Origin: Patescibacteria group bacterium
GTDB taxonomy: Bacteria; Patescibacteriota; Minisyncoccia; Phycocordibacterales; Phycocordibacteraceae
Assembly: GCA_040388985.1 (NCBI GenBank)
Contig: JAZKAU010000002.1
Coordinates: 52,570-116,569, forward strand
DNA length: 64,000 bases
Direction: 5' to 3'
In this document: positions 3,221 through 38,581 of the stretch, in pieces
Numbering within the stretch: position 1 is the first letter of the stretch
Layout of the letters: every line of letters begins with the position of its first letter
The notes under the pieces: generated by a model
Databases searched by the model: none
What the model saw: only the letters and a program-made list of their open reading frames with translations
Told to the model about the DNA's origin: nothing
Program-made: the position numbers and the translations under genes

Positions 3221-3318
3221 ATCTTATGTATACACCGATGGTTCGGTAAAACAAAAAGGCCCCGCATACGCTACGCGCGGGAGCCTTTCCGATTCCTGTC
3301 TGCATTCCTTCCGCACCA

Positions 3319-4011
3319 TCACCTCCGGAACGTCAGGACCAAGCCGCCGAGAACTCCGGCCTTCCGTTCGTCGAGGTGATTGAGCGGGATCAGTACTTCG
3401 AATCCGGGCGTGATCGACATTCCCTTCGGGAGCCAGGACGGACTGAGCGTGGCCGACAAAGCTGCGGGGAGGTGCAGCCAGTCCTTGCGACGGTTATAGG
3501 CAAGCTCAGCCGAGAGACGTATCGGCACGCCGTGAACCGATTGCGCGTACGCGCCGCTCAGCCGGAAGATCTGCGTGTCGAGCTTGCCGAAGGTCGCGAG
3601 TTCCTCGAACCGGAAACCGAAATCGAGCGTCTTCCCCGTTCCCAGTCGCTGCGTCCCGCCGATGTCGACGGCGAAGTCGACTGCATCGTTCTTCGGAAGG
3701 AACCAATAGGTGACTTCCGCCCGGCACTTGAGCGTGCCGAAGCAACGCTTCACGATGCCGGGTCCTATGTCGAGTTCAGCATCGTTCGTATCCTTGCCGA
3801 CGGTCGAGAAGAGTCGGATATACGGTCCTGCCTTCTCGGTGACTTGGCCGGTCATGACGAGGACCGGATTCTCGGAGACGACCTTACCGCCGCCCGGACG
3901 GATATTCTCCGACTTCACTCCTGCGCTTACGACCGTAGTCGTCTGCGCCGCTACTGGTATGGCGATTATGGTGAAAGGTGCTGCGAACAGCACGAAAGAA
4001 CGAAAAGACAT
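3319..4011 (-). CDS. hypothetical secreted protein, possibly beta-barrel (MipA/OmpW-like pattern)
   Basis: Signal peptide MSFRSFVLFAAPFTIIAIPVAAQ. Alternating hydrophobic strands (VTYWFLP, LDFGFRFEEL, IRLSAELAYN). No confident family. Confidence 0.45.
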   Translation of the reverse strand: MSFRSFVLFAAPFTIIAIPVAAQTTTVVSAGVKSENIRPGGGKVVSENPVLVMTGQVTEKAGPYIRLFSTVGKDTNDAELDIGPGIVKRCFGTLKCRAEVTYWFLPKNDAVDFAVDIGGTQRLGTGKTLDFGFRFEELATFGKLDTQIFRLSGAYAQSVHGVPIRLSAELAYNRRKDWLHLPAALSATLSPSWLPKGMSITPGFEVLIPLNHLDERKAGVLGGLVLTFRR

Positions 4012-4038
4012 CGTTACATCTCCTTGAGGAAACCAGAT

Positions 4039-4067
4039 TTGACAGTATCAGTACTTTGTTTTAATGT
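4039..4067 (+). promoter_or_regulatory. candidate sigma70-type promoter for TrmB-like gene at 4110
   Basis: TTGACA (4039-4044), 17-bp spacer, TAATGT (4062-4067). Followed by operator-like inverted repeat TGTCGTCGAAAACCGACAAAT (4073-4093). Confidence 0.35.
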
Positions 4068-4109
4068 AAATCTGTCGTCGAAAACCGACAAATCTGTTAC
4101 TATCACCCC

Positions 4110-4924: not shown

Positions 4925-4999
4925 TGGGGCGGCTAGAGAGAATCGAACTCTCGATGCGAGTACCACAAACTCGAGTTTTACCACTAAACTATAGCCGCC
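4925..4999 (-). tRNA. tRNA-His (GTG)
   Basis: Hand-folded cloverleaf. G-1 then acceptor GCGGCTA/TAGCCGC, anticodon stem CGAGT/ACTCG, loop TTGTGGT (anticodon GTG), T-arm GAGAG-TTCGATT-CTCTC, discriminator C, encoded CCA. Confidence 0.85.
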
Positions 5000-5478
5000 A
5001 TGAATGTTTTCCGCTCGCCCTCGTAATGGTGTACCAGAAAATGGCAGTTATGACAAAGCCACGCCAGATTTTCAAGCTTATTATTCTTACGATTCTTGTC
5101 GATATGATGCACCGCGAGTATGCGTTTATCTATAGTTTTACAAAGTCCACACACTTGAGGGAGGTTTGCTCGATTCATGACAGCACGATAGCTACTTTGT
5201 CCGGTCGTAAAATTTTTGTGCCTTTCTGCGACGTATAGTTGGTTTCTCCAACATGTCTGGCAGCTCTTGCTGCAGAAGAACTTCCCGCTCTTGGAACGTC
5301 TAAGATCCTTATTTTGCTTATATGAAATCCTCCCGCATATATCACAGGGCATATTCTTTCCCGTGGGTCTTGCTGTCTTATAACAGGCTACGCTGCAATA
5401 CTTTCCGTTACCCTGCTTAAGTGCAGAAGGCTTGCTGTAAAAGCTAGTCGTGCACACATTACAGGGAACGATCGGCAT
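4984..5478 (-). CDS. HNH endonuclease with N-terminal Cys-rich zinc-ribbon repeats
   Basis: Several CxxC pairs (CNVC, CSVAC, CDIC, CSKSC) then HNH motif HHIDKNRKNNKLENLAWLCHNCH. Last 5 codons (MAAIV-stop) overlap the 5' end of tRNA-His. Confidence 0.8.
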   Translation of the reverse strand: MPIVPCNVCTTSFYSKPSALKQGNGKYCSVACYKTARPTGKNMPCDICGRISYKQNKDLRRSKSGKFFCSKSCQTCWRNQLYVAERHKNFTTGQSSYRAVMNRANLPQVCGLCKTIDKRILAVHHIDKNRKNNKLENLAWLCHNCHFLVHHYEGERKTFMAAIV

Positions 5479-5589
5479 GCAAACAGTATGTCTTTCTTCT
5501 TCGAGTCTTGTGGAGTAAACCGACTGTGGATATATCCAGAATCCTTTATCTTTTCTTCATTTTACCTGGGTGACTCATATTCGACTCCT

Positions 5590-5718: not shown

Positions 5719-5746
5719 CGACCCCGATGCTTTCGCATCGGGGTCG
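5719..5746 (-). terminator. hairpin 3' of tRNA-Leu(GAG)
   Basis: CGACCCCGATGC-TTTC-GCATCGGGGTCG is a 12-bp stem immediately downstream of the tRNA 3' end. Weak U-tract. Confidence 0.4.
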
Positions 5747-5753
5747 TTCGCCT

Positions 5754-5838
5754 TGGTGCCCAGGAGAGGACTTGAACCTCCACGCCTTGCGGCACATCCA
5801 CCTCAAGGATGCTTGTCTACCAATTTCAACACCTGGGC
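5754..5838 (-). tRNA. tRNA-Leu (GAG)
   Basis: Type II tRNA. Acceptor GCCCAGG/CCTGGGC, anticodon stem CATCC/GGATG, loop TTGAGGT (GAG), long variable arm, T-arm GGAGG-TTCAAGT-CCTCT, encoded CCA. Confidence 0.85.
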
Positions 5839-5939
5839 CTGGTGTGCTCGTGCAGAGACTTGCCCACTATACGAAAGATATAGCTAAAAAGAAAGAGCCG
5901 CCCATAGGGCGGCTCTTTCTTTTTTCAAAATCTCTATCC

Positions 5940-28737: not shown

Positions 28738-29262
28738 TTGAATGGGGTTCTGGGAGGAGTGCGTGAGTGGTATAATAGGTTAGTGACTGAAAAATACCGA
28801 CGGAATGCAAATACCGCATGCAGGACCTGTCTGAAGCCAATTTATCGAAGACCATCTGAGGTAAAGTCTGGGAAGGTTTTCTGTAGTTCATTGTGCTACG
28901 GAGCGGCAAACCGCAAAGAGAAACCCTGCGTTATTTGTGGGAAACTTATTCTTGCTAGAGCAAATAAGAAGACTTGCAGCCGAGAGTGTGCTAATCGAAA
29001 CCGAGCAGGAATCAAGTACAAGATTGGGCGGCCGCGTGATAAGTCTAATACGATACGCACGATCAAGCTGCATCTCATCAATGAGCGCGGATCGGAATGT
29101 GAACGTTGCGGATACGACAAGCGAGAGATACTACACGTTCATCACAAAGACCGAGATCGCTCGAACAATGAGGTGTCGAATCTTGAGCTCATCTGTCCGA
29201 ATTGCCACTATGAGGAGCATTATCTGGAAAAAAGCTGGCTTGATGGTAGACTGACCTCCTAA
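28738..29262 (+). CDS. HNH endonuclease with N-terminal Cys-rich zinc-ribbon repeats (paralog of 4984-5478)
   Basis: CRTCL...CSSLCY, CVICG...CSREC then HVHHKDRDRSNNEVSNLELICPNCH HNH motif. Ends 4 nt before tRNA-Ser. Confidence 0.8.
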   Translation: MNGVLGGVREWYNRLVTEKYRRNANTACRTCLKPIYRRPSEVKSGKVFCSSLCYGAANRKEKPCVICGKLILARANKKTCSRECANRNRAGIKYKIGRPRDKSNTIRTIKLHLINERGSECERCGYDKREILHVHHKDRDRSNNEVSNLELICPNCHYEEHYLEKSWLDGRLTS

Positions 29263-29266
29263 AGAA

Positions 29267-29352
<86 letters not shown>

Positions 29353-36741: not shown

Positions 36742-37677
36742 ATGAAAAGCGACTTCGTCCTCTTCTTAGCGATCCTCATCTTCATATTCGTCCTCTGGCT
36801 CTACACGGGCGGGCCTACGCACCCGATATCCTTCGCAGGACCTTATCTCACACCCGTCACGACTAGCGGTGGACAGTCGCAAGCATACGGAAACCCGAGC
36901 GACCTCTCAGGCGGCTCGTTCCTGCATAGCCTGTCGAGCGGGTTCGGTAAAAGCGGAAGCCTCGGCGGAGATACGAGCGGAAGCTCGAATATCTCCTCTG
37001 TCCCTGCAGGCGATCAGTCGCCTTATGCGGGCAAGGTACATATAAACGGGGGCGATCCTTCCGCCACCTCAGTGCGACAGGAGTATCTTGCGCTCCAGTC
37101 AGCGTCGGGTTCCGGGAATATCAATATCACTGGCTGGCAGTTGGTGAGCACGCAGTCGGGAGCGCAGGCTGTGATACGTGCAGGCGAACGTATACCGGAC
37201 GTGAGCAGCGAAAGTTCCATCGTCCTCAATCCGGGAGACGAAGCTATTGTCACGACCGGACAGTCCCCCTATCGCAGCACGTCTTTTAAGGAGAATAAGT
37301 GCACCGGCTATCTTGATTCGAGTTCATACTCTCCGTCACTCTCGACGAGCAACTGCCCGGCTCCCATAGACGAGCTCGGGGACTTCTACTCTGGGAACGC
37401 TAATCATTATGACGACTGTGCCGACTATGTACGGACCCTTTCGAGCTGCCGAGTACCGGGTACCTCGCCCCAAGGCACGCCTTCATTCTGCAGGGACTTC
37501 GTCCGGGATCGCCTCGACTATTCCGGCTGCGTAGACGGACACAAAAACGATGCTGACTTCGTCGGCGACACGTGGCGCATCTACCTCGACGAGAACAAGC
37601 AGCTTTGGCGCAGCGACAACGATACTATCCGGCTGCTTGATCAGAACGGGAAGGTGGTAGACCAGTACTCGTATTAG
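36742..37677 (+). CDS. hypothetical secreted protein, Gly/Ser-rich N-terminal region and Cys-rich C-terminal domain
   Basis: N-terminal TM/signal MKSDFVLFLAILIFIFVLWLYTG. C-terminus has at least 8 Cys residues. Confidence 0.45.
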   Translation: MKSDFVLFLAILIFIFVLWLYTGGPTHPISFAGPYLTPVTTSGGQSQAYGNPSDLSGGSFLHSLSSGFGKSGSLGGDTSGSSNISSVPAGDQSPYAGKVHINGGDPSATSVRQEYLALQSASGSGNINITGWQLVSTQSGAQAVIRAGERIPDVSSESSIVLNPGDEAIVTTGQSPYRSTSFKENKCTGYLDSSSYSPSLSTSNCPAPIDELGDFYSGNANHYDDCADYVRTLSSCRVPGTSPQGTPSFCRDFVRDRLDYSGCVDGHKNDADFVGDTWRIYLDENKQLWRSDNDTIRLLDQNGKVVDQYSY

Positions 37678-38507
37678 ATCTGGTAGGAATCAATGGCACG
37701 AGCAAGTAAGTCCCGCTTCTCGACGTGTTCTTTCCAGATACTATTAGATCGATTTCCGTTTACTCGCACACCGGGGGAGAAGTTGATTTCCTTTTGAAAT
37801 TTCAATAGTTCACTTTTTCCTGTTATAAGGACTTCATTTGGAAGAACGATATGTGCGTTGATATCTAGATCTGCGAGAAGTGACTGAACGATTGATAAAA
37901 TACGTATATTTTTCTGATATCCGCGCACCCTTCTTTTATTACGTGCTGGTCTAAAGTCCATGCAGCCCTCGTCATCGAAAAATGCTCTGAGGAATTCGCG
38001 TTTGCATTCTCTTGGCATTCTCTCTATTTCTTCCAGGAGTTCCTCAGCCTTCTTGAGAAGATAGGTGCCGAGAGCGACATTATTATATCCGATCTTAGTT
38101 ACCCCTGTGATGGGATTTACATATAGTTTTGGATCAAAGTCATATATACCTTTCATGAGAGTCCTTACTCGCTGTATGAGAGCTCCGCTTCGATTATTGT
38201 ATCTGCAGCCGCTTGAACTAAGCTCTCCGTCGAATATGAGATGGGCGACTAGTAGTACTAGCTGGGGACTCCAAGTACTAAATTCCTTGAACATTCGGAC
38301 ACTCTTTCCTTTTCTACTTAACGCAAATTCGCGCATTCTGTCTCCTGCTCTCTGCCGAATCGAATCTTTTCTCTCTGCTGACAGCGGCAAATCGCGTATA
38401 TACGAATATACTGTTGTTTTTGGACCTCCTGTGCGCTCAACTATTTCGGATAATGTATATCCTTCTTTCCTCAGCGCTACGCACACTTCTCTCAACGTAG
38501 TCTCCAT
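37674..38507 (-). CDS. LAGLIDADG-family homing endonuclease (two motifs) with N-terminal HTH
   Basis: Motif 1 LVAHLIFDGELSSS and motif 2 LRAFFDDEGCMD (LAGLIDADG-like xxFxDxEG). N-terminal TLREVCVALRKEGYTLSEIVERTG HTH. Start ATG (rc 38505-38507) lies 2 nt downstream of the tRNA-Lys 3' end. Confidence 0.6.
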   Translation of the reverse strand: METTLREVCVALRKEGYTLSEIVERTGGPKTTVYSYIRDLPLSAERKDSIRQRAGDRMREFALSRKGKSVRMFKEFSTWSPQLVLLVAHLIFDGELSSSGCRYNNRSGALIQRVRTLMKGIYDFDPKLYVNPITGVTKIGYNNVALGTYLLKKAEELLEEIERMPRECKREFLRAFFDDEGCMDFRPARNKRRVRGYQKNIRILSIVQSLLADLDINAHIVLPNEVLITGKSELLKFQKEINFSPGVRVNGNRSNSIWKEHVEKRDLLARAIDSYQI

Positions 38508-38508
38508 G

Positions 38509-38581
38509 TGCGCCCGGATGGGCTCGAACCATCGACCCACTGCTTAAAAGGCAGTTGCTCTACCGACTGAGCTACGGGCGC
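38509..38581 (-). tRNA. tRNA-Lys (TTT)
   Basis: Acceptor GCGCCCG/CGGGCGC, D-arm GCTC-AGTCGGTA-GAGC, anticodon stem ACTGC/GCAGT, loop CTTTTAA (TTT), T-arm GATGG-TTCGAGC-CCATC. Confidence 0.85.

Follow-up and report, generated by a model that had tools for sequence, protein, structure and literature searches.

Introduction

Among the closest described systems, SegB of T4 is a free-standing homing endonuclease encoded between transfer RNA (tRNA) genes, promoters embedded in endonuclease genes favour the retention of these genes, and I-TevI represses its own promoter via an operator resembling its homing site (PMC2988022). In Patescibacteria, HNH homing endonuclease genes are located in group I introns of tRNA-Asn, and LAGLIDADG genes in introns of ribosomal RNA (rRNA) (PMC13011429). 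Here, a stretch of 64,000 nucleotides (nt) from a Patescibacteria group bacterium (GCA_040388985.1, contig JAZKAU010000002.1, positions 52,570 to 116,569; hereafter, the window) was analysed, in which the open reading frame (ORF) of an HNH protein of 164 amino acids (aa), termed HNH-His, runs into the 5' end of the tRNA-His gene on the same strand. HNH-His belongs to a family tightly linked to tRNA-His, with the arrangement repeated in hundreds of Patescibacteria genomes, and we put at roughly 55% the probability that it is a free-standing homing-endonuclease-type selfish cassette in the tRNA flank, made harmless by RNase P/Z processing. Literature searches returned no account of tRNA-His-linked free-standing HNH genes in Patescibacteria; the closest work (PMC13011429) contains no description of them.

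The junction between HNH-His and tRNA-His

The junction comprises the following features.

4984..5478, minus strand: HNH-His ORF, 164 aa, with its ATG at 5478 (ORF list)
4986..4984, minus strand: HNH-His stop codon TAG, identical to tRNA-His positions 13–15
4925..4999, minus strand: tRNA-His(GUG) (ARAGORN, Rfam RF00005, sequence)
4984..4999, minus strand: 16-nt overlap of HNH-His and tRNA-His (sequence)

The tRNA-His gene consists of G-1 (4999), the body (4998..4929), the discriminator C (4928) and an encoded CCA (4927..4925); an extra G-1 is typical of tRNA-His. ARAGORN calls tRNA-His(GTG) at 4925..4998 on the minus strand with the CCA included, and the Rfam tRNA model RF00005 independently places it at 4928..4998 with 63.8 bits, both setting the 5' end of the tRNA inside the HNH-His ORF. 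The 16-nt overlap proposed in the first-pass annotation agrees with the ORF list, both tRNA predictions and the sequence, and amounts to 15 nt with the mature tRNA body or 16 nt when G-1 is counted. The ORF ends in TTC ATG GCG GCT ATA GTT TAG, where codons 160–164 (M-A-A-I-V) and the stop codon share their bases with G-1, the 5' acceptor strand, U8-A9 and the D-stem up to position 15. Simultaneously, the G of the Met160 ATG is G-1 of the tRNA (base 4999), situated opposite the discriminator C 4928. RNase P, predicted to cut 5' of G-1, would cleave inside codon 160, so that the stop codon would be lost from the HNH mRNA; the annotation had likewise placed the cut in the HNH stop region. No intron is involved, the tRNA being uninterrupted in the ARAGORN and Rfam predictions and the HNH-His ORF lying 5' of G-1. 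A group I intron or other structured RNA at the junction was considered and rejected, as Rfam at the gathering score returned only tRNAs in the window.

The HNH-His protein

In HNH-His, two CxxC...C(S)xxC zinc-ribbon modules (TRASH/MYM-like) precede an HNH nuclease domain. Pfam HNH_3 scores 22.8 bits, just below its cut-off of 24.8, and PHROG 1271 ('HNH endonuclease') covers residues 5–159 with an E value of 1e-16, which places phage HNH endonucleases among the relatives. Across 37 diverse homologues, every zinc-binding Cys and every HNH residue is invariant, including H124/H125, D127, N132, N137, C110/C113, C142/C145, H146 and H150. The AlphaFold (AF2) model has a predicted local distance difference test score (pLDDT) of 80.7, and its top Foldseek matches in the PDB are the Gme HNH nickase 4h9d (probability 0.97), McrA and the Cap5 HNH, none with E <= 0.001. 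A profile search of PDB sequences gives weak matches only, to the IscB HNH domain, the HNH domain of a group II intron maturase and a MYM zinc finger; the last (2das, E 0.036) is matched by the zinc modules. The PADLOC models for 'homing endonuclease' (HEase) and ZorE match the HNH core only (E 1e-5 to 1e-7), and no Zorya or other defence partner genes were found near HNH-His with the PADLOC models or in the flanks. The invariant HNH and zinc-binding residues and the PHROG match bear out the assignment to the HNH family made at first reading.

The ORF is intact, its catalytic and zinc-binding residues are invariant, and the ratio of non-synonymous to synonymous substitution rates (dN/dS) is 0.02–0.15 in the closest pairs, with a median of 0.24. 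On these grounds HNH-His is evidently a functional gene and no pseudogene, and its product would be expected to cleave DNA. The homologues of HNH-His number 1271, and the wider (Zn-ribbon)n-HNH superfamily contains 2,754 clusters at 50% identity (E <= 1e-10). The relatives all derive from metagenome-assembled genomes of the Paceibacteria/Parcubacteria type, and an identical protein is also present on a Logan contig. Named database entries for such tRNA-flank nuclease proteins mostly read 'hypothetical protein'.

Family-wide linkage to tRNA-His

Eighty species-level loci were fetched from the 327 that encode a relative, and one ends at a contig edge, leaving 79 that are assessable; these genome loci were picked for carrying the HNH gene, and the metagenome loci described below for one tRNA-His sequence type. 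The HNH orthologue adjoins tRNA-His directly on its 5' side, on the same strand and within 51 nt, in 77 of the 79, overlapping it in 51 and separated from it by gaps of 2–51 nt in 26. The arrangements are distributed as follows.

Overlap of exactly 15 nt in the same frame: 48 loci, one with a tRNA that ARAGORN did not call
Overlap of another length (21 nt, 30 nt, or the entire tRNA read through): 3 loci
Stop codon 2–19 nt ahead of tRNA-His: 25 loci
Stop codon 51 nt ahead of tRNA-His: 1 locus
tRNA-His about 90 nt upstream of the HNH gene instead: 2 loci

Most of the 120 best homologues are exactly 164 aa long, and their C-terminal tails (FMAAIV, FMATIV, FMAAMV, FMEALV, FMVPMV) are translated tRNA-His acceptor stems, co-varying with them. 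The recurrent in-frame junction (48/80 loci) is not a matter of chance, and what is conserved is the close association with tRNA-His rather than the overlap itself. A one-off overlap or a pseudogene is ruled out by the conserved and intact family. The tRNA-His genes of L038 (4480–4560) and L052 (4478–4555) are missed by ARAGORN; they contain the odd T-loops GGGGGCAGCACCC and GGGGGCAGTACCC, where GGTTCGAATCC is canonical, and GTGCAAATC T-loops are present in many other tRNA-His genes of the set.

The overlap itself is most likely a by-product of compaction rather than a regulatory device, for three reasons. Firstly, A-T-G (A-3, U-2, G-1) directly precedes G1 of tRNA-His at 85 of the 96 sites that lack an HNH gene, which indicates that Met160 is dictated by the tRNA leader; the triplet resembles a leader or RNase P context conserved for tRNA-His independently of the ORF. 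Secondly, tRNA positions 13–15 read U-A-R and thereby make an in-frame stop available. Thirdly, in L216–L222 a NUDIX hydrolase gene with the tail GKGGVA extends 15 nt into the 5' end of tRNA-Ser(GGA), just as HNH-His does into tRNA-His, so that U13-A14-R15 acts as a default stop for genes reading into a tRNA in this frame. At the gene-free sites, the ATG leader is usually located about 8–24 nt after a TGnTATAAA -10 box.

Anatomy of the cassette and its promoter

The cassette measures about 550–590 base pairs (bp) and is composed of a TATCCACA palindrome, a -35/-10 promoter and a putatively leaderless ORF. Among 92 distinct regions upstream of HNH-His orthologues, aligned on the start codon, a match of at least 5/6 to TATAAT is present in 64 and ends 6–7 nt before the start codon in 56 of these, a TT-type -35 element is found 16–19 nt further upstream of the -10 in 43, and a Shine-Dalgarno-like motif in one. 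In bacteria, the transcription start is normally some 7 nt downstream of the -10 hexamer. With the -10 placed 6–7 nt before the AUG, transcription would begin at or next to this codon, and the HNH-His mRNA is thus predicted to be leaderless. In the window, the corresponding elements are located upstream of HNH-His as follows.

5485..5490, minus strand: -10-like CATACT, 6 nt upstream of the ATG, with no Shine-Dalgarno motif
5514..5519, minus strand: -35-like TTTACT, with a spacing of 23 nt to the -10 (about 17 nt in most relatives)
5524..5539, minus strand: imperfect palindrome CTGGATATATCCACAG holding the TATCCACA box, about 10 nt upstream of the -35
5754..5838, minus strand: tRNA-Leu(GAG), which precedes HNH-His in the conserved block rluD-rplS-tRNALeu-[HNH]-tRNAHis

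The inference of a promoter is based on family-wide conservation rather than on the window copy. The native tRNA-His promoter, visible at empty sites, is missing in the window, where the sole promoter-like element lies upstream of the ORF; the HNH gene and tRNA-His must therefore be co-transcribed, in line with the first-pass annotation.

The TATCCACA box is often the right half of a TGTGG-N-CCACA palindrome, with CCACA situated 45–54 nt upstream of the ATG in 46 of the 92 regions; at empty sites, CCACA occurs anywhere within the 80 nt upstream in only 5 of 96. Other parts of the window show no enrichment of the box. The palindrome looks like an operator, and the box could serve autoregulation. 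A pairing of the TGTGG half-site with the tRNA-His anticodon loop (TTGTGG) as operator and homing site, in the manner of I-TevI, was considered and set aside: the two have only 5–6 nt in common, conservation of the left half-site is poor, and there is no sign of co-variation. The likeness of the box complement to the anticodon loop may be a coincidence.

Directly after tRNA-Leu(GAG), a 12-bp GC-rich hairpin with a GAAA loop and no U-tract is located at 5719–5746 (minus strand), and similar hairpins follow tRNA-Leu at the empty sites L181, L155 and L130. The spacer from tRNA-Leu to HNH-His spans 275 nt, about 230 nt of it without explanation.

Presence, absence and descent

A metagenome scan anchored on the tRNA-His sequence returned 120 loci, 104 of which have enough upstream sequence; 21 of the 104 carry the HNH gene at tRNA-His and 83 do not. 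The HNH-His gene is dispensable. Many empty loci keep the rluD-rplS-tRNALeu(GAG)-tRNAHis synteny, with a hairpin after tRNA-Leu and a TGnTATAAA promoter ahead of tRNA-His. In a neighbour-joining (NJ) host tree of RluD and ribosomal protein L19, filled and empty loci interleave, and the empty loci L181 and L130 fall inside the clade of the window organism, as close to it as the filled loci L002–L008. A core housekeeping gene, considered because HNH identity tracks L19/RluD identity, is ruled out by the roughly 80% of tRNA-His loci without it.

The boundaries of the cassette were taken from two pairs of filled and empty loci. L050 (filled) and L128 (empty) are homologous on both flanks, and L050 contains an extra stretch of about 580 nt (palindrome, promoter, ORF and stop) between the stop of the upstream gene and a retained 15-nt tRNA leader. 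Between the homologous flanks of L105 (filled) and L125 (empty), a 546-nt cassette stands in place of a 44-nt promoter spacer. The 275-nt spacer of the window is too diverged at the nucleotide level from the empty spacers of L130 and L181 to yield boundaries. In L071 and L077, the whole cassette is located 3' of tRNA-His, which has its own promoter there, and tandem double HNH copies precede a single tRNA-His in L051 (4001–5000) and L171 (4045–5021). No integrase is encoded in the flanks, and the insert of about 0.55 kb contains the HNH ORF only and lies 5' of the tRNA, unlike an integrase-type island.

Further nuclease genes at tRNA ends

Two further tRNA-abutting endonuclease genes are present in the window, at tRNA-Ser and tRNA-Lys.

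28768..28776, plus strand: TGGTATAAT (-10), 6 nt upstream of the HNH-Ser GTG at 28783
28783..29262, plus strand: HNH-Ser, a paralogue of 159 aa with a GTG start, 32% identical to HNH-His
29267..29352, plus strand: tRNA-Ser(UGA), starting 4 nt after the HNH-Ser stop (Rfam, ARAGORN)
37674..38507, minus strand: LAGLIDADG endonuclease-type ORF, 277 aa, with its ATG at 38507 (Pfam LAGLIDADG_3, 33.1 bits)
38508..38581, minus strand: tRNA-Lys(UUU), with discriminator A at 38509, then one C and the LAGLIDADG ATG; CCA not encoded

Both abutments had been noticed at first reading and are real, but the starts given in the mechanical ORF list, 28738 and 38540, are wrong and are replaced by 28783 and 38507. 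TTG 28738 is located upstream of the HNH-Ser -10 box, which appears translated as W-Y-N/T in several database entries, and GTG 38540 falls inside the T-arm of tRNA-Lys.

HNH-Ser passes Pfam PF01844 (26.7 bits against a cut-off of 21.4), and its mRNA, judged by the position of the -10, would be leaderless too. Its family comprises 1,208 matches, some with C-terminal tails of translated tRNA-Ser sequence. At homologous loci, tRNA-Ser(TGA) begins +4, +1 or -1 from the HNH stop (three independent locus sets; L212–L225), and L184, which shares the DUF5652-tRNA-Ser synteny, is an empty site for HNH-Ser. A palindrome like that of HNH-His was sought upstream of HNH-Ser, and none is consistent across four independent loci. 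In addition, the near-identical contigs L220–L222 and L216–L219, from different samples, differ downstream of tRNA-Ser(TGA) (about 3240–4080): one set encodes a 228-aa protein with HNH_repeat and HNH domains, and the other contains ORFs of 116 and 120 aa, perhaps the result of a frameshift in, or the decay of, another tRNA-flanking HNH gene.

The LAGLIDADG family has 604 matches, mostly of 276–277 aa; the NCBI annotation of the window protein (P0241) gives only 206 aa. The junction GCGCA-C-ATG between tRNA-Lys and the LAGLIDADG gene is identical in 5/5 independent homologue loci. As the ATG follows the tRNA-Lys discriminator after 1 nt, 3' cleavage of the tRNA there would yield an essentially leaderless LAGLIDADG mRNA. 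The link between endonuclease and tRNA is real and family-wide for HNH-His, HNH-Ser and LAGLIDADG.

A survey of 468 non-redundant tRNAs in all fetched loci extends this pattern. In at least 15 loci, the last base of a double-LAGLIDADG ORF is at -1 of tRNA-Leu(GAG). ORFs of this kind, about 225–280 aa long (Pfam LAGLIDADG_3), are situated between rplS and tRNA-Leu(GAG) in many relatives (including L007, L009, L014, L015, L017, L027, L050, L052, L092, L094, L143 and L155); the window organism has none, and window 5839–5939 is the matching empty spacer. An HNH ORF of about 105 aa with the tail KAPVV overlaps tRNA-Arg(TCT) by 15 nt in L006 and L172, another HNH ORF ends 19 nt before tRNA-Pro TGG in L073, and a GIY-YIG ORF overlaps tRNA-Arg(TCT) by 10 nt in L094. 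A family of about 225–235 aa, with an N-terminal helix-turn-helix (HTH) and an LxGLxLYxGEG motif, is LAGLIDADG-like by eye; it gave no match to a nuclease family in Pfam, one member matching HTH_3 only, below the cut-off. Its ORFs end -2 to +22 nt from several tRNAs, as follows.

tRNA-Gly TCC: L042, L046, L076
tRNA-Arg TCT: L127
tRNA-Arg GCG: L180
tRNA-Ile TAT: L026

Ordinary genes (RluD, NUDIX, Sua5-like) often start 0–6 nt after tRNA 3' ends on the same strand, at the following loci.

tRNA-Val/RluD: L015, L070, L093, L123
tRNA-Arg(CCG)/NUDIX: L216–L221
tRNA-His/Sua5-like: L030, L146

These starts suggest that tRNA 3' processing commonly creates leaderless mRNAs here, a mitochondrion-like punctuation.

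Proposed mechanism

In the favoured reading, the long-term home of the cassette would be the spacer directly 5' of the single tRNA-His gene of Paceibacteria-type Patescibacteria. There it would replace the native tRNA promoter, and the HNH mRNA would have tRNA-His as its 3' end. Ribosomes would start at the 5'-terminal AUG and stop at the UAG provided by tRNA positions 13–15, and RNase P would cut 5' of G-1 to release a normal tRNA-His. Thereby, tRNA end-processing would play the role of splicing for intron- and intein-borne homing endonucleases, rendering the insertion harmless to the host gene. The same cut would also take the stop codon, and complete protein would come from unprocessed precursors only, so that nuclease levels should stay low; the cut may plausibly act as a brake on expression. 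The nuclease is presumed to cut cassette-free tRNA-His loci, whose repair would then copy the cassette in. As the cassette would supply the promoter of an essential tRNA, its simple deletion would be counter-selected, and this promoter capture offers a reason for its long persistence.

The occurrence of three unrelated nuclease superfamilies, with little but a homing lifestyle in common, each placed at nucleotide precision on a specific tRNA, together with the clean filled/empty polymorphism, favours a homing-type cassette. The first-pass annotation had suggested a 'selfish or processing-linked' endonuclease module; the selfish alternative is favoured by the family-wide tRNA link of the three genes, and the processing-linked role is disfavoured, as about 80% of comparable tRNA-His loci, including those of close relatives, lack the gene and two loci carry the cassette downstream.

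A wider form of this interpretation, which we advance tentatively and at somewhat under even odds, is that tRNA flanks in Patescibacteria are a general landing pad for HNH, LAGLIDADG and GIY-YIG nucleases, each family being faithful to one tRNA. RNase P at the 5' side and RNase Z-type trimming at the 3' side would replace intron or intein splicing, and the 5' ends of the leaderless mRNAs would be set by a promoter 6–7 nt before the AUG or by the tRNA 3' cut. HNH-His would also capture the promoter of an essential single-copy tRNA, making deletion hard, which may explain its persistence across a whole class, and the nuclease may bind the TATCCACA operator to regulate its own gene.

Several observations weigh against a homing-type cassette. 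The HNH NJ tree shares its main clades with the RluD+L19 tree and no near-identical cassette was found in distant hosts, so inheritance looks mostly vertical with repeated loss, and a dispensable host gene would show the same. The trees are crude and the sampling biased, loci having been chosen for gene presence or for one tRNA-His sequence type, and the incongruence result is thus weak negative evidence. In-frame stops occur in at most 3 of 92 ORFs, and two of these are normal stops overrun by the alignment; a classical homing cycle predicts many decayed copies, and their rarity therefore counts against it. Strong purifying selection acts on HNH-His where L19 is only 50–60% identical, which is unusual for a purely selfish gene. 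In addition, a strict sigma-70 scan of the window returned no promoter at HNH-His, the promoter of the window copy being poor, with an atypical -35 to -10 spacing of 23 nt. Finally, a scan of viral contigs gave no relatives beside tRNAs; a phage origin, or phage-borne copies, was rejected, the viral matches consisting of the HNH domain alone with no tRNAs nearby.

Alternative explanations

The main rival, which we consider unlikely, holds that HNH-His is a domesticated host factor tied to tRNA-His, either a regulator at the TATCCACA palindrome or a pre-tRNA binding or processing factor kept in cis. Such a role would fit the dN/dS of 0.02–0.15, a long-range conservation about equal to that of L19, the clade-level agreement of the HNH and host trees and the place of the gene in the conserved rluD-rplS-tRNALeu-HNH-tRNAHis block; the cassette also holds the only visible tRNA-His promoter and a specific operator-like palindrome, and the zinc modules resemble MYM/FCS-type fingers (2das, E 0.036). 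However, it is hard to reconcile with the absence of the gene from most related loci, since 83 of 104 tRNA-His loci, including those of the closest relatives with identical synteny, have a TGnTATAAA promoter instead. Furthermore, L071 and L077 carry the cassette downstream of a tRNA-His with its own promoter, all nuclease catalytic residues are conserved although a pure regulator would not need them, and unrelated LAGLIDADG and GIY-YIG genes show the same abutment to tRNAs.

Compaction alone, in which an accessory HNH gene landed by tRNA-His in an ancestor and was then inherited or lost, with a meaningless overlap and no relation to the tRNA, is less probable still. It agrees with the abutment of non-nuclease genes to tRNAs, including the NUDIX gene with its equal 15-nt overlap and the RluD, NUDIX and Sua5-like starts 0–6 nt after tRNA 3' ends, with the ready in-frame stop at tRNA positions 13–15 (U-A-R), with the ATG before G1 as a leader feature at 85 of 96 empty sites, and with the lack of overlap in about a third of the orthologues. 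These points account for the overlap, but not for the linkage: the outer synteny varies, yet 77 of 79 loci keep HNH and tRNA-His together, and two loci have the cassette across the tRNA from its usual position. Each of two paralogous HNH subfamilies keeps to a tRNA of its own, and tRNA ends are enriched in nuclease ORFs from three superfamilies.

A defence or toxin-type nuclease, its expression tied to tRNA transcription and RNase P so that it fires when a phage perturbs tRNA processing, is very improbable: the patchy, accessory-like distribution under strong purifying selection, the weak matches of the HNH domain to ZorE and Cap5-type effectors and the predicted origin of complete protein from unprocessed precursors would suit it, but the matches cover the generic HNH core only, the cassette has no partner genes, sensor domain or immunity gene, the locus keeps to a tRNA and lies outside any defence island, and the LAGLIDADG and GIY-YIG genes at other tRNAs belong to classic homing families.

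Implications

If the homing-type reading is true, ordinary tRNA end-trimming would join self-splicing introns and inteins as a third means by which a selfish endonuclease gene can reside harmlessly in the transcription unit of an essential RNA. It would provide thousands of uncharacterised candidates for small site-specific nucleases, each with a target neighbourhood predictable from its specific tRNA gene, and would suggest that leaderless translation and a mitochondrion-like tRNA punctuation are widespread in ultra-small bacteria. The junction would also be a natural system in which one stretch of 16 nucleotides is contested by mRNA translation and tRNA maturation. In annotation, gene callers assign wrong starts to nuclease ORFs in tRNA flanks, as at TTG 28738 and at GTG 38540 inside a tRNA.

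Comparison with known systems

In the thrU-tufB and tyrT-tpr operons of E. coli, a tRNA and a protein gene are co-transcribed and separated by RNase P and 3' processing. HNH-His would likewise share one transcript with a tRNA; unlike it, the E. coli ORFs are downstream of the tRNAs, with normal spacing, a Shine-Dalgarno sequence and a host protein as product, and show neither overlap nor presence/absence polymorphism. The tRNA punctuation model of animal mitochondrial genomes, reportedly that of Ojala et al. in 1981, resembles the HNH-His locus in the zero or negative spacing of a protein gene and a tRNA on the same strand, in the setting of mRNA ends by tRNA excision, and in a processed mRNA without a complete stop codon. 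HNH-His differs in its location on a bacterial chromosome and in having its stop inside the tRNA, so that processing and complete translation would be mutually exclusive for each molecule; we know of no polyadenylation that could rebuild the HNH-His stop codon.

The intron-borne endonucleases of Patescibacteria share with HNH-His the phylum, the nuclease superfamilies, tRNA or rRNA host genes and the restoration of the host RNA by RNA processing (PMC13011429). In HNH-His, however, there is no intron, the ORF occupies the 5' leader rather than the mature tRNA (for LAGLIDADG, the 3' trailer), and restoration would be achieved by RNase P/Z end-trimming rather than by self-splicing.

The free-standing endonucleases of the T-even phages, such as SegB (GIY-YIG) and MobE (HNH), are also small nuclease ORFs in a spacer beside a conserved gene that is the presumed target, SegB lying within a tRNA gene region as well; they have their own promoters, their expression appears tightly limited, and an endonuclease gene is more readily retained when it supplies a promoter on which the host gene depends (PMC2988022). 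Compared with these, HNH-His, a putative endonuclease, is chromosomal in Patescibacteria, with no tRNA-linked relatives on the viral contigs scanned; it is joined to its tRNA at nucleotide precision, often overlapping it, has a predicted leaderless mRNA, and persists across a whole bacterial class with clade-level co-divergence.

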